Positions 2,042 through 29,417 of a DNA stretch of 32,000 nt are shown here, one piece after another. A model generated the notes under the pieces. That model saw only the letters and a list, made by a program, of their open reading frames with translations, had not been told where the DNA came from and searched no databases. A program made the translations under genes and the position numbers. Location of the stretch: assembly GCF_964059045.1 (NCBI RefSeq), contig NZ_OZ060402.1:300001-332000 (forward strand). Direction: 5' to 3'. Positions within the stretch are counted from its first letter, which is position 1; every line of letters begins with the position of its first letter. This stretch comes from Candidatus Saccharimonadota bacterium (GTDB lineage: Bacteria; Pseudomonadota; Gammaproteobacteria; Enterobacterales; Enterobacteriaceae).

Positions 2042-3073
2042 TTATTGTGCTGCGTTATAATAATTTTTGTTTTTTATCTTAGATATATTATTAAATAGAA
2101 TAGTATTTTTTTCAATTTTTTCTTTACTTAAAATTTTTTTTTCTGGTGACAAATTTAATTTTTTAAATAATTCAAGATCATTTTTTTCTTCTGGATTGGA
2201 AGCGGTAAGTAATTTACAACCATAAAAAATAGAATTAGCTCCAGCCATAAAACACATTGCTTGTGTTTGTTGATTCATTTTTTCTCTTCCTGCAGATAAT
2301 CTAATATAAGATTTAGGCATCATAATTCTAGTTAATGCAATTATTTTAACAAAATCAAAAGGATCAACTTCATTCACATTTTCCAATGGAGTCCCTTTTA
2401 TTTTTATTAACATATTGATAGGAATGCTTTCTGGTGGTTTTTCTAAATTGGATAATGTAATTAATAATTGTAATCGATCTGTAATAGTTTCACCTAAACC
2501 AATAATACCTCCAGAACAAATTTTCATTCCACTATTGCGAATAATATTCAAAGTATTTAATCTATCTTGATAAGTTCTAGTTGTTATGATTTTTTTGTAA
2601 AATTCATTCGAAGTATCTAAATTATGATTATAAAAATCTAATCCTGCAGAATGTAATAATTTTGCTTGTGATTTTGTTAACATTCCAAGTGTCATGCAAG
2701 TTTCCATTCCTAGTTTTTTTACTTCTTTTATAATTTTTATCAAATATGGCATATCTCTATCTTTAGGATTTTTCCATGCAGCACCCATGCAAAATCTAGA
2801 AGATCCTGACAATTGAGCTTTTTTTGCAGCATTTATTATCTTGTTTATTTGCATCAAAGGTTGAATATCAATATTAGTTTTATATCGAGAACTTTGTGGA
2901 CAATATTTACAATCTTCTGGACATGCACCAGTTTTTATAGATAATAAAGTGCTAATTTGTATTTTATTAGGATTGAAATTTTCACGGTGTATCGTTTGAG
3001 CTTGAAACATTAATTCAAAAAATGGTTTTTTTATTAACAGCATGACCTGATCATAATTCCAAGATGTTTTCAT
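2042..3073 (-). CDS. bioB: biotin synthase (radical SAM)
   Basis: 343 aa, colinear with E. coli BioB (346 aa). Motifs: CxxxCxxC cluster motif [53 protein letters not shown] Shine-Dalgarno lies ~10 nt upstream of the ATG. Confidence 0.95.
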
Positions 3074-4903: not shown

Positions 4904-7297
4904 TTAATTTTTATTATCAAATATTCTATTTTTATATAGTAATTTAATAAAATTTAAAATCCATTTTAATATATCTTGATTATTAAATAAATTATGAATA
5001 AATTTTAATTTATTAGAACTAATGATATTCCATTGATTAGGTTCTAATTTTATTTTTTCAACTAACCAATTAAAATTAATATCATGATTATGATGAAATA
5101 TTATAAATCCTTCTTTTTTTCTAGAATAAATTTTTTTAATGCCTATATTATTGGATAAAATACGAATAACAGTAATAGTAATTAAATTTTTTACAGGTTC
5201 TGTCATAATTCCAAAATGATAAATTAATTCATTTTTAATATTGTTTATATCGTTTTTAGAATGACAATTTGAAATTTTTTTATAAAAGTTAATACGAGTA
5301 TTAACATCAGAAATATAAGTTTCTGGTAATAAAGCAGGAATATTAATTTCTATTTCTGTATTATGTACATTGATTTTTTGAGCATATTGCTTGCCCCACT
5401 TTTTATACATACTTATAGTATTTTGTAACATTTCTTTATAAAGAACAACACCAATTTTACTCATATGACCGCTTTGGTCATGACCAATGATTTCTCCCAT
5501 TCCTCTAATTTCTAAATCTTGATTAGATAAAATAAATCCATCACCAATGTTTTGACAAGAATAAATAGAATCAAGTCTTTTTTTTGCATTATCATTAATA
5601 TTTTTATAGTTTTTTATTAATAATAATACATATGCTTGTTGATGAGAACGACCAATTCTTCCTCTTAATTGATGTAATTGTGCTAATCCAAATTGCTCAG
5701 CTTTTTCAATAATCATGGTATTGGCATATGGTATATCAATTCCAGTTTCAATAATTGTTGTACACAGTAAAATATTAAATTTTTGATTATAAAAATCATG
5801 CATTATTTTTTTTAAATTTGTGCTATTCATTTTACCATGTCCAATTTTTATTTTTGCTTCTGGTATTAATTTATTTAACTGTATAGCTTTTTTTTCAATA
5901 TTTTGAATAGAATTATAAATATAATAAATTTGACCTCCTCTAAGTAATTCTTTAAGAATAGTTTTTCGAATTAGATTTATATCATATTCTATAATTATTG
6001 TTTTAATTGCTAGTCTTTTTTCTGGGGGGGTTGTTATAATTGATAAATCTCTAATACCATGCATAGCCATATTTAATGTACGTGGAATAGGAGTAGCTGT
6101 TAAAGTTAATATATCAATATTAGTAAATAATGATTTTATTTTTTCTTTATGTATCACACCAAATTTATGTTCTTCATCGATAATCAGTAATCCTAAATTA
6201 AACCATTGTATATTTTTTAATAACATTTGATGAGTTCCAATTAAAATATTTAATTTTCCTTCTTTAGCTTCATTAATAGATAATGATATTTCTTTTGGTT
6301 TACATAATCTCGATAACATTTTTATTCTTACTGAACAATGAGAAAAACGATCAACAAAATTATTGTAATGTTGTTGTACTAATAGTGTAGTTGGTACTAA
6401 AATAGCTACTTGTTTTTTATTGACTGTTGCTATAAATGATGCTCTCATAGCTATTTCTGTTTTTCCAAAACCAACATCTCCACAAATTAAACGATCCATA
6501 GGTATTGGTTTTTCCATATCATTCAATACTTCATTAATTGCTTTATCTTGATCTATTGTTAGAACAAAAGGAAATTTTTTACAAAAATTGTTATATTTTT
6601 TGGATTTTAAATTAAAAGAAAAACCTAATTTAGTAGCTCTTTTGGCATAAATATCTAATAATAATGCTGTAGAATCATATATTTTTTTTTCAATTTTTTT
6701 TCTTTCCCTGATCCATTGATCATTGCCTAATTTATTTAGTAAAATATTTTCATTAGATGTATTACTATAATGATTAATTAAATTTAAAGAAGTAATAGGA
6801 ACATATAATTTAGCTTTTTCTGCATATTCAATAATACAATATTCATTATTAATTCCATTATTTTCCAACATTATTAAACCTTTATATCGACCAATTCCAT
6901 GTTTAAAATGAACAACTAATTGATTAAGATTTAATTGAAATTGATGATTTAATTCTTTACCTTGGTTTTTTTTATGATATTGATAAAAAGGTGAACAGAT
7001 GAGTTGGTTGTTTAAAATATCTTTAACACAAAGACAAGCAATATTATTTTTTTGATCAATAAATCCATATTTTTTTTCTTTAAAAATAAAAAAATATTTT
7101 TCTGATTTATTTATATCTAAAAATTGTTTGATATTAAATTCATATATTTGTTTTGGTAAAATTTTAAAGTAAGATATTATATTTAATAAATGATAATAAT
7201 TTTTTTTACTTTCAACAAAAAATATAATTTTCCCCCGGAATACATTTAAAAATAATTCAAAATTTTTTATATTTTTTTCTTGTGATGAACATATCAT
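4904..7297 (-). CDS. mfd: transcription-repair coupling factor, N-terminally truncated form (797 aa vs 1148 aa in E. coli)
   Basis: The alignment starts at about E. coli residue 345 (FLETFDGPVVFSVESEGRREALGELLARIKI vs FLNVFRGKIIFFVESKKNYYHLLNIISYFKI). Retained elements: the RNAP-interaction region (VVHFKHGIGRYKGL), Walker A GDVGFGKTE, DEEH, TATPIPRTL, QLRGRIGRS, and the C-terminal domain. No SD is visible at the ATG, so the exact start is less certain. Confidence 0.9.
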   Translation of the reverse strand: MICSSQEKNIKNFELFLNVFRGKIIFFVESKKNYYHLLNIISYFKILPKQIYEFNIKQFLDINKSEKYFFIFKEKKYGFIDQKNNIACLCVKDILNNQLICSPFYQYHKKNQGKELNHQFQLNLNQLVVHFKHGIGRYKGLIMLENNGINNEYCIIEYAEKAKLYVPITSLNLINHYSNTSNENILLNKLGNDQWIRERKKIEKKIYDSTALLLDIYAKRATKLGFSFNLKSKKYNNFCKKFPFVLTIDQDKAINEVLNDMEKPIPMDRLICGDVGFGKTEIAMRASFIATVNKKQVAILVPTTLLVQQHYNNFVDRFSHCSVRIKMLSRLCKPKEISLSINEAKEGKLNILIGTHQMLLKNIQWFNLGLLIIDEEHKFGVIHKEKIKSLFTNIDILTLTATPIPRTLNMAMHGIRDLSIITTPPEKRLAIKTIIIEYDINLIRKTILKELLRGGQIYYIYNSIQNIEKKAIQLNKLIPEAKIKIGHGKMNSTNLKKIMHDFYNQKFNILLCTTIIETGIDIPYANTMIIEKAEQFGLAQLHQLRGRIGRSHQQAYVLLLIKNYKNINDNAKKRLDSIYSCQNIGDGFILSNQDLEIRGMGEIIGHDQSGHMSKIGVVLYKEMLQNTISMYKKWGKQYAQKINVHNTEIEINIPALLPETYISDVNTRINFYKKISNCHSKNDINNIKNELIYHFGIMTEPVKNLITITVIRILSNNIGIKKIYSRKKEGFIIFHHNHDINFNWLVEKIKLEPNQWNIISSNKLKFIHNLFNNQDILKWILNFIKLLYKNRIFDNKN

Positions 7298-19265: not shown

Positions 19266-20065
19266 ATGAATTGTTTTTTAAAAAAATTATATTGTAATAA
19301 ACAGTGTTTAACTGAATTTATAGGCACTGGATTAATTTTATTCATGAGTAGTAGTTATATTGCACTTTTATCTATCAATAACATAAACATTGAACCATGG
19401 ATAATAAATATTGTATTAAATATAAATCTAATAATTATTATTTATTGTAGTAAATCTATTTCAGGTGCTCATTTAAATCCTGCAATTACTATAATTTTTT
19501 ATTTATTTTTTCAATTTCCAAAAAAAAAAGTCATTCCTTATATTATTTCTCAAACTTTAGGTTCTTTTTTTTTTCTATTATATCATATCTAATTTTTAAT
19601 AAAATATTAATTATTTTTAATAATACATATTATATTATGAAACATCATTTAAATCATGTTTATTTTGTTTCTTTTTTTTCTTTATATGTAGAACATAATC
19701 ATTTATTGTTAGTAAATTTATTTATAGAATTACTAATTTCCGCTATTTTTATAATTTTTATTATTTTTTTAAATGAGTATAAAGATTATTTTATTTTAAA
19801 TCATATTGATTGTTCTCCATTAATTATTGGTTTAGTTTTAATTATTATTAATAATACAATTGGTAATAATATAGTTTTTTGTTTAAATCCAGCTTTAGAT
19901 TTAAGTCCTAAAATTTTTTCTTTATTAAATATTTATTTAAGAAATTTATATTTAATAAATATCCCAAATTTATTTTCTTTTTTTTTTATACCAATCATTG
20001 GTCCTATATTAGGGTTTATAATAGGTGTGTACGGATATAATTTTATCCATAAAATTTTTAAATAA
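19266..20065 (+). pseudogene. glpF: glycerol uptake facilitator (aquaglyceroporin), interrupted by a frameshift in a T10 run
   Basis: ORF 19266-19592 matches E. coli GlpF residues ~1-105 (TEFIGTGL, SGAHLNPAITI). ORF 19637-20065 matches ~118-260 (second NPA: CLNPALDLSPK). The two are in different frames. The second frame is open back to 19592, and its translation (IFNKILIIFNNTYYIM) stays colinear with GlpF. One extra T in the run 19565-19574 would give a continuous 266-aa protein. Confidence 0.85.
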
Positions 20066-27926: not shown

Positions 27927-28464
27927 AGAATATATATATATTTAAAGGATATTATATAAAGTATACTTATTTTTTTTATATTTCTCTATTTTTAGTTAAA
28001 AGAATTATTGAATATAATAATTAATACAATATTTTTAATGAAGACTATTAAAAATATATACATTTTTGAAAAAATTCAAAAATTAAAAATTTATAAAAAT
28101 TAAAATTAAAATATATATTTAGGAAAATATATATTTATATTATAGATGAATAAATATTTTTATAAAATAATTTGTTGTAATAAAATATTAAAAAATAATG
28201 ATTTCTTTTTTTATGCTAAAATGTTAAATTTATTATATCGATAATATATTCATTATTTTAAATAAATATATTGATATAATTAACATTTATTAAAAATTAT
28301 TTTAATTATTAATACACAATCATAATTATTATAAATAAATATTTTTATATTATTATCACTAAAAACCTATCATTAAAAATCATTTATATTAATATAATTT
28401 ATTTATGTGTATTATTTATAAATATCCATTAAAAAAAATAAACTAATAAAAAAGAGAAAAAATT

Positions 28465-29417
28465 ATGATAAAAAAAAAATTAAAAATAAATTAATTATTA
28501 TAGGTTCAGGACCTGCTGGTTATACAGCTGCAATTTATGCTGCCAGAGCTAATTTATCACCAGTGTTAATTACTGGAAAAAATCCAGGAGGTCAATTAAC
28601 TACAACTAATGAAATTGAAAATTGGCCTGGAGATATAAATAAAATAACTGGATTAGAATTAATGAATCGTATGAATCAACATTCACTAAAATTTAATACT
28701 AGTATTATTTCTGATTTTATTCATACAGTTAAATTCAATTGTTCACCATTTAAATTATTTGGAGAAGAATACGAATATAGTGCTAATTGTTTAATTATTG
28801 CCACCGGCTCTACAGCAAAATATTTAGGTTTAAAATCTGAAAAAAACTTTTTAGGGAAAGGTGTATCAACATGCGCTACTTGCGATGGTTTTTTTTATAA
28901 AGAAAAAATAGTAGCGGTTATTGGTGGAGGCAATACTGCTGTTGAAGAAGCATTATATTTATCTAATATAGCATCAAAAGTCTATTTAATTCATCGTCAG
29001 GAAAAACTAAAAGCTGAAAAAATTTTAATAACACGATTATTAGAAAAAATAAAAAATAATAAAATAATTTTTTACAACAACACGATTGTTCTAGATATTT
29101 TAGGTGATGAAATATCAATAAAAAAAATTAAGATTAAAAATAACAAAAATAATATTCAAGAAATTAATATATCTGGTATTTTTGTTGCAATTGGACATAA
29201 TCCAAATTCTAATATCTTTAAAGATCAATTAAAATTAAAAAATGGATATATCCAAGTTGATTGTAATTCACATAAAAATTCAACTCAAACTAGTATTCCA
29301 GGAATATTTGCTGCTGGTGATGTAATAGATCATCATTATCGTCAAGCTATTACAGCTGCTTCAACAGGCTGTATGGCTGCTTTAGATGCTGAAAAATATT
29401 TAGACAGTATCTTTTAA
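28465..29417 (+). CDS. trxB: thioredoxin-disulfide reductase, reading frame interrupted in an A10 run 5 nt after the start codon
   Basis: An AAGAG SD precedes ATG 28465. That frame stops after 9 codons (MIKKKLKIN*). The long ORF frame is open from 28422 and encodes [30 protein letters not shown] (FAD GxGxxG motif) upstream of the tracked GTG 28563, but it has no ATG/GTG/TTG start there. One extra A in the run 28470-28479 joins the ATG to the long frame, giving 317 aa versus 321 aa in E. coli. Downstream motifs are intact: redox CATCDG and [10 protein letters not shown]. Confidence 0.85.

Follow-up and report, generated by a model that had tools for sequence, protein, structure and literature searches.

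Thioredoxin reductase (TrxB) supports ribonucleotide reduction through thioredoxin. In the aphid endosymbiont Buchnera aphidicola of Eriosoma grossulariae, the sole canonical start codon ahead of the FAD-binding motif of the trxB gene opens a reading frame that ends after nine codons, and the enzyme itself is encoded in a different frame. The question raised by this locus is whether functional TrxB is still made from it and, if so, by which route. The stretch of DNA that was analyzed (hereafter the window) comprises 32,000 nucleotides with a GC content of approximately 21%, and carries, in order, hisS (3′ end), glyA, bioB, pgl, mfd, gapA, fldA, phrB, ybgI, sucA, sucB, gpmA, pfkA, glpF, tpiA, rpsA, cmk, aroA, serC, serS, trxB, infA, and aspS. 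A TrxB protein identical at every residue (100%) was found by protein search in a B. aphidicola genome of 606,948 bp, and the Buchnera of E. grossulariae, sequenced by Manzano-Marin and colleagues as sample 3692, has a genome of 607 kb with 22.4% GC.

The features to which the argument refers are the following.

28452..28456, plus strand: weak Shine-Dalgarno (SD)-like AAGAG, 8 nt 5′ of ATG 28465 and 13 nt 5′ of the slippery heptamer
28465..28494, plus strand: sole canonical start with its nine-codon dead-end frame (sequence and ORF list)
28468..28469, plus strand: AT dinucleotide between the ATG and the tract (alignment with the Buchnera of E. lanigerum and E. harunire; edit distance)
28470..28479, plus strand: A10 homopolymer, the proposed site of +1 A slippage, of which 28470-28476 form the heptamer (sequence)
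28479..28481, plus strand: in-frame ATT, the RefSeq start (WP_367676822.1, 312 aa; database record)
28422..29417, plus strand: open TrxB frame, with homology from 28482 and the stop TAA at 29415-17 (profile and structure matches)
28503..28520, plus strand: GSGPAG, the FAD-binding dinucleotide motif (translation)
28563..28565, plus strand: GTG, the first canonical in-frame start (ORF list)
28872..28889, plus strand: CATCDG, the redox-active disulfide motif (translation, aligned to E. coli TrxB)
28923..28952, plus strand: 10-residue binding motif (translation, aligned to E. coli TrxB)

ATG 28465-67 is followed by AT and then by the ten A residues, which are flanked by T on both sides. Read from this ATG, the sequence encodes MIKKKLKIN* and terminates at TAA 28492-94, to the base as the first-pass annotation of this DNA had described it. 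The frame of TrxB is the -1 frame relative to ATG 28465 (its codons begin at 28470, 28473, and so on); translation and the ORF list bear out the earlier account of it as open from 28422, encoding GSGPAG at 28503-28520, and devoid of ATG, GTG, or TTG before GTG 28563, which is located 3′ of the FAD motif and from which the mechanical ORF list starts trxB (284 aa). Near-cognate codons are present in this frame at 28479, 28494, and 28497 (ATT) and at 28446 and 28500 (ATA).

Addition of one A to the tract yields a TrxB of 317 aa, as had been claimed. The TrxB frame can likewise be reached from ATG 28465 with changes of +4 or -2 nt; those of -1, +2, and +3 do not restore it. A -1 ribosomal shift within A10 gives the same 317-aa protein as one additional A. 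Two elements had been overlooked in the first-pass annotation: the in-frame ATT at 28479 and the slippery heptamer A_AAA_AAA at 28470-76, which stands in zero-frame phase relative to ATG 28465 and allows perfect re-pairing after a slip. The SD sequence that had been reported upstream of the ATG is indeed present, at 28452-56, and its best duplex with the anti-SD reaches no more than -2.9 kcal/mol, a weak pairing that is ordinary for this genome. A promoter and terminator scan of the spacer between serS and trxB returned hits no more numerous than in shuffled sequence, an Rfam scan of the window produced no match, and a repeat scan of the window detected AT-rich low-complexity matches only.

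The protein encoded in the open frame is unambiguous in its similarities. Its translation scores 387 bits against TIGR01292 (cut-off 343), covering profile positions 2-300 of 300, and matches the E. coli TrxB structures 1CL0 and 1TDE with E values of about 1e-129, in agreement with the earlier claim of a full-length enzyme. The alignment with E. coli TrxB begins at N8 of the restored protein (the N of MKNKL), and the 312-aa product that would start at ATT 28479 retains all residues aligning to the E. coli enzyme. The FAD GxGxxG, the redox CxxC (CATC), and the NADPH GGGNTA motifs are all present, which upholds the statement that the downstream motifs are intact; the NADPH 2′-phosphate motif HRRxxxR reads HRQEKLK here, a minor deviation. 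The frame contains no further stop or indel over 312 codons at 19% GC. Several other starts were considered as sources of a working enzyme and rejected: the 284-aa product of GTG 28563 is without the FAD motif, and initiation at ATT 28494, ATT 28497, or ATA 28500 would lose most of the first beta-strand (KLIIIG).

Public records already treat trxB as functional, by way of two incompatible gene models. RefSeq TrxB WP_367676822.1 has 312 aa, begins MKNKL..., and takes ATT 28479 as its start. The submitter's TrxB, CAL4322418.1, annotated as B. aphidicola (Eriosoma grossulariae), has 316 aa and begins MKKKIKNKL..., a sequence that can be read from the DNA only through ATG 28465-67 with a skip of AT 28468-69, or with Met forced at GAT 28467. 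With the mechanical ORF, three incompatible models thus exist for a single locus: 316 aa with a silent skip of two nucleotides, 312 aa with an ATT start, and 284 aa. The laboratory that sequenced the genome annotates genes frameshifted at A/T homopolymers as functional, on the rationale of rescue by slippage, and applies this practice genome-wide. The suggestion that slippage on poly(A) is a relevant known mechanism was therefore well placed, the deposited TrxB being full length and the rationale the same. A literature search found no report of a trxB frameshift in Buchnera, and trxB is unmentioned in the source paper of the genome and its supplements.

Where the lesion lies can be judged from close relatives, of which two were retrieved for the 5′ end of trxB, the Buchnera of E. 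lanigerum and of E. harunire. In protein distances for serS and aspS, E. grossulariae pairs with E. lanigerum as its sister, and E. harunire falls outside the pair. In E. lanigerum the gene begins with ATG + A10 + TTAAAAGTAAATTA... and is in frame (MKKKIKSKL..., 317 aa; TrxB 73% identical); in E. harunire it begins ATG AAT CAA CAA CAA CTT ATT..., without a run (TrxB 70% identical). The frameshift is thus absent from the sister species, and the tract itself from the outgroup. The first-pass annotation had placed the frameshift within the A10 tract, a placement at odds with the relatives: the in-frame gene of E. lanigerum has a tract just as long, and what sets the two sequences apart is the AT at 28468-69. 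The comparison of tract length with a sister that had been proposed, made here at the species level, accordingly gives A10 in both, so there is no difference in run length to explain the break. Because the tract is as long in the sister, the lesion is more likely to lie in the two nucleotides between the ATG and the run. Asn (AAT) is the second codon in the E. harunire outgroup and in several other Buchnera, and by edit distance a single deletion separates the observed sequence from ATG-AAT-A10, as against two changes for a version with A11. From these three short sequences, the most likely lesion is a one-A deletion in the second codon, ancestrally AAT, with the run left unchanged.

The out-of-frame gene evolves more slowly than the in-frame copy of the sister species and presents no sign of decay. 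In a Tajima relative-rate test with the Buchnera of E. harunire as outgroup, TrxB has 14 unique amino-acid changes in E. grossulariae vs 34 in E. lanigerum (chi2 8.3, p = 0.004), and two neighboring genes are symmetric in the same comparison (E. grossulariae/E. lanigerum: serS 33/34, aspS 52/55). The slower evolution of the out-of-frame copy rules out a long-standing pseudogene. It also lends weight to the earlier view that the gene is still under selection, with the reservation that inactivation in the very recent past would fit the slow rate just as well.

We propose that the frame offset is real and that its rescue is leaky. A small lesion between AUG 28465 and a pre-existing, conserved A10 would have put the AUG in the +1 register relative to the TrxB frame. 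RNA polymerase would then slip backward on A10 and add one A in a fraction of transcripts, and the resulting A11 mRNA (AUG AUA AAA AAA AAA AUU ...) would be translated into the 317-aa TrxB at a reduced level. Two minor routes may contribute: slippage of tRNA-Lys by -1 on the in-phase heptamer, which would give the same 317-aa protein, and weak initiation at AUU 28479, which would give an equivalent product of 312 aa. We rank transcriptional slippage by +1 A ahead of the -1 ribosomal slip and the AUU start, the latter two being regarded as additive minor contributions. That some functional TrxB is made, by whichever route, appears likely to us; the fuller statement, that a real frameshift is overcome with transcriptional slippage as the main source of the enzyme, we hold to have about an even chance of being correct. 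Slippage on A10, its efficiency, and the synthesis of TrxB are matters that we infer from the DNA.

Such slippage has precedent in Buchnera. Of 157 insertions in Buchnera transcripts, 151 were in A/T runs; most were of one base, insertions of this kind are the dominant class of indel, and their frequency climbs exponentially as runs lengthen, up to 11 nt. The A10 runs in the Buchnera mur genes are cited as slippage sites. Against a high efficiency stands the fact that restored reading frames were not seen in error-corrected (CirSeq) data from Buchnera. For frameshifted genes of Buchnera and Blochmannia, the 2008 work of Tamas and coworkers reportedly found corrected frames in 12-50% of transcripts and is said to have detected the MurF protein.

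How far the sequence can be trusted, and what a break at a homopolymer means in this genome, can be assessed within the window, which contains 28 runs of A or T of at least 9 nt. Open, full-length genes contain the A11 and A10 of sucA together with 20 further runs of at least 9 nt, and the genic 9-nt runs are all in frame in full-length genes. Two of the six genic runs of at least 10 nt coincide with frame breaks, in trxB and glpF, both one base short; the remaining four (A11 and A10 in sucA, and an A10 and a T10 inside the two halves of glpF) are in frame. The glpF gene is represented by two ORFs in different frames, 19266-19592 and 19637-20065, which encode the two halves of a MIP/GlpF channel, N-terminal and C-terminal, and match the Pfam profile at positions 3-100 and 123-222. 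The break is at a T10 run (19565-74), 9 kb from trxB, and one additional T restores an ORF of 266 aa. The gene is strongly diverged, sharing at most 41-42% identity with any relative, and no GlpF protein was found for the E. grossulariae genome or for the two sister genomes. It looks like a true pseudogene undergoing real decay, and its break at T10 means that homopolymer breaks in this genome can be plain decay.

Could the A10 of trxB be an artefact or a consensus effect, with A11 in the actual genome or in a sizeable fraction of the roughly 100 genome copies of each Buchnera cell? The first-pass annotation had offered an under-called homopolymer as the alternative to slippage; it stays among the rivals, at a lower probability than had been implied. 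Homopolymers are where errors in length classically arise, the libraries went through 12 PCR cycles, and within 32 kb two genes lack exactly one base each, both at a 10-nt run. Set against these points, the data are Illumina HiSeq reads (2x251), the long runs of sucA and other genes are in frame, and a sister genome from the same pipeline has an in-frame A10 at the homologous site; these three observations lead us to regard the trxB sequence as probably correct. The A11 version is in addition the less parsimonious one given the relatives, and the submitters curated trxB by hand and retained the sequence. The placement of the lesion outside the homopolymer likewise makes a simple under-call less attractive, and we regard a hidden A11 as very unlikely. 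A recent and genuine inactivation, with trace leaky expression at most and an intact ORF that reflects nothing but recency, is unlikely in our estimation, and it has real points in its favor: single indels at or beside homopolymers are described in the literature as the usual first step of erosion in such symbionts, glpF, which is split at T10, highly diverged, and not annotated as a protein, illustrates that step in the same window, the frameshift is missing from the sister species, and the CirSeq data cited above contain no restored frames. Recent loss is countered by the significantly slower evolution of TrxB on the E. grossulariae branch than in the sister, by the lack of any extra stop or indel, by the integrity of all catalytic motifs, by the retention of trxB in every Buchnera genome among the search matches, and by the convergence of three independent leaky routes on a functional product.

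The two minor routes of our proposal have also been weighed as principal ones. If trxB is intact as RefSeq has it, translation starts at AUU 28479 and AUG 28465 heads a nine-codon upstream ORF. This model coincides exactly with WP_367676822.1 and its product is complete with respect to the E. coli alignment; AUU starts are proven in the E. coli genes infC and pcnB (literature), approximately half of the genes in the E. grossulariae Buchnera genome lack any SD pairing and can evidently dispense with it, and termination and reinitiation might be coupled, the stop of the upstream ORF (28492-94) lying 13 nt 3′ of the AUU. It is nevertheless quite unlikely: in E. coli, AUU supports about 0.1-3% of the initiation obtained with AUG, even in an optimal context (literature), AUU 28479 has no SD pairing upstream, and ATG accounts for 20 of the window's 22 other starts. 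The AUU sits 14 nt 3′ of an AUG in the usual context, from which ribosomes would traverse it. The start is moreover not conserved, because the homologous ATT of E. lanigerum is an internal Ile codon 3′ of the real ATG. Even more doubtful than a miscalled tract is a rescue that is mainly translational, by a -1 slip on A_AAA_AAA three codons after AUG 28465, aided by the SD, or by sliding on poly(A). The phase of the heptamer is correct and re-pairing would be perfect, its distance from the SD, 13 nt, is among those (9-14 nt) reported to stimulate -1 shifting, an IS element is known whose single SD acts in both initiation and frameshifting (literature), and E. coli ribosomes are known to slide on poly(A) (literature). 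Published values are nonetheless low, unstimulated heptamers in E. coli giving 2-10x a background of about 0.055%, that is, about 0.5% or less; A_AAA_AAA is much less prone to shift than A_AAA_AAG; and sliding is robust at A11 but gives “little product” at A9/A10. The SD is weak, and the fold of 28477-28570 (-15.5 kcal/mol, z = -0.12 vs shuffles) has no significant structure.

The proposed reading, a real offset overcome chiefly by polymerase slippage, finds its nearest relatives in the frameshifted genes at poly(A) tracts of the class associated with Tamas (2008) and Wernegreen (2010) (murF and other mur genes with A10 in Buchnera; dnaX, dnaG, and pth in Blochmannia). Like these, trxB is an otherwise intact and constrained housekeeping gene of an AT-rich obligate insect endosymbiont, has a sense-strand A10 at or beside the break with one additional A restoring a single ORF, and is treated by annotators as functional on the slippage rationale. 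It differs from them in that its run occupies codons 3-5, right after the start rather than inside the gene, in that the run is as long as in the in-frame sister, with the indel probably beside it, and in that the out-of-frame state is confined, among the species compared, to E. grossulariae. The trxB locus is a new and so far unpublished instance of a pattern familiar from endosymbionts, and slippage by polymerase or ribosome on the run probably still yields some full-length enzyme. If TrxB is made here, a core redox enzyme joins the genes that reduced endosymbionts run through infidelity of decoding. The gene is unusual within this pattern in that, with the slippery run at codons 3-5, transcriptional and translational slippage would lead to an identical protein.

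Resemblance to programmed -1 frameshifting of the dnaX/IS911 type extends only to the in-phase A_AAA_AAA heptamer and to the spacing, 13 nt and within the range of 9-14 nt, of an SD-like element upstream of it, the pairing of which is weak (-2.9 kcal/mol); a single SD could serve both initiation and shifting in trxB, as in an IS element. Unlike those systems, trxB has no 3′ stimulatory stem-loop or pseudoknot (28477-28570), its heptamer ends in A rather than G, and its zero-frame product is a useless nine-residue peptide in place of a second functional protein; the arrangement is also not conserved, the sister gene being in frame and in need of no shift. With the AUU-initiated infC and pcnB of E. 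coli, trxB shares an in-frame AUU directly 5′ of the conserved domain, as in the RefSeq model, and it departs from them in having no SD for that codon, an AUG 14 nt upstream, and an AUU that is internal Ile in the sister.

A more ambitious reading can be formulated, in which the trxB A10 is an element that sets expression and is conserved in the Buchnera of Eriosoma, having become in E. grossulariae an obligatory recoding cassette under selection. One weak SD would both position initiation at AUG 28465 and promote the -1 shift three codons in, and, together with +1 slippage by the polymerase, would fix TrxB at a low dose. If true, the locus would be no tolerated defect but a site of recoding placed right where a cellular housekeeping gene begins. 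We consider it extremely unlikely. The comparison lends no support to selective maintenance of the out-of-frame state: the sister gene is in frame, exact-protein look-ups with infA, the RefSeq TrxB, the 284-aa ORF, and serS revealed no second E. grossulariae assembly, and a search of genome contigs with the TrxB protein gave, among the matches listed, only distant TrxB genes with at most 64% identity.

Taken as a tolerated offset, the locus offers points of modest interest: a run at the start codon, a lesion beside that run, and three conflicting public models. It belongs to the same mutational class as the homopolymer-indel pseudogenes of eroding endosymbionts, for which the T10 break of glpF provides an example, and differs from them in carrying no secondary damage and in evolving more slowly than the in-frame sister copy, whereas glpF is highly diverged. 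A gene that is one base short at a homopolymer should thus not be taken as rescued by default: glpF bears the same signature and is apparently dead.

Long adenine and thymine runs are common in the 32-kb window, with 17 poly(A) and 11 poly(T) tracts of at least 9 nt; those lying within genes are almost all sense-strand poly(A). A single gene, sucA, has an A11, an A10, and two A9 runs, all of them in frame. Transcriptional slippage, if it occurs, would reduce the expression of intact genes bearing such long runs. In the Buchnera of E. lanigerum, the trxB start codon is immediately followed by an A10 run that is in frame and as long as that of the E. grossulariae gene (3001-3013 of L081, a stretch of sister-symbiont DNA from OZ060395.1), and a second run, A14, lies about 50 nt upstream (L081 2942-2955). 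Slippage at this A10 run would lower TrxB expression in the E. lanigerum symbiont rather than rescue it. The window features considered here are the following.

2042-3073, reverse strand: bioB, full length and intact
4904-7297, reverse strand: mfd ORF, 797 amino acids
7298-8210: gap of 914 nt between mfd and gapA
19266-20065, forward strand: MIP/GlpF-family channel gene (glpF), as two ORFs of 108 and 142 amino acids in different frames
19565-19574: T10 run at the glpF frame break
28443-28464: region upstream of the trxB start
28992-29021, forward strand: TrxB motif for binding the NADPH 2'-phosphate

The two halves of glpF match Pfam PF00230 at profile positions 3-100 and 123-222, and the addition of one T at the break yields a single ORF of 266 amino acids that includes both NPA motifs. 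The closest relatives of the product share only 41-42% identity with it, and a search for a GlpF protein from the Buchnera of E. grossulariae or from the two sister Eriosoma symbiont genomes (E. lanigerum and E. harunire) found none. Most likely, glpF is a true pseudogene whose frame was disrupted by a one-base deficit of the same kind as that in trxB.

The HRRxxxR motif of TrxB reads HRQEKLK, versus HRRDGFR in E. coli, with two of the three arginines substituted; the E. lanigerum symbiont has HRKAILK at this site. The loss of arginines may relax specificity for NADPH.

ATG is the start codon of 20 of the 22 genes in the window, the apparent exceptions being glyA (GTG) and serC (TTG). Shine-Dalgarno pairing upstream of the start was undetectable in about half (10 of 22), and such pairing probably matters little for start selection in this genome.

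The mfd ORF covers just positions 366-1147 of the 1,148-position Mfd profile, and the predicted protein thus lacks the N-terminal third. Mfd is also short in Buchnera APS. The stretch upstream of mfd, which separates it from gapA, contains no ORF of at least 30 amino acids on either strand, no tRNA, and no Rfam match.

BioB matches TIGR00433 with 410 bits over profile positions 2-306 of 307. The gene is intact even though Manzano-Marin and colleagues list the Er. grossulariae symbiont as auxotrophic for biotin; presumably, other bio genes have been lost and bioB has been kept.
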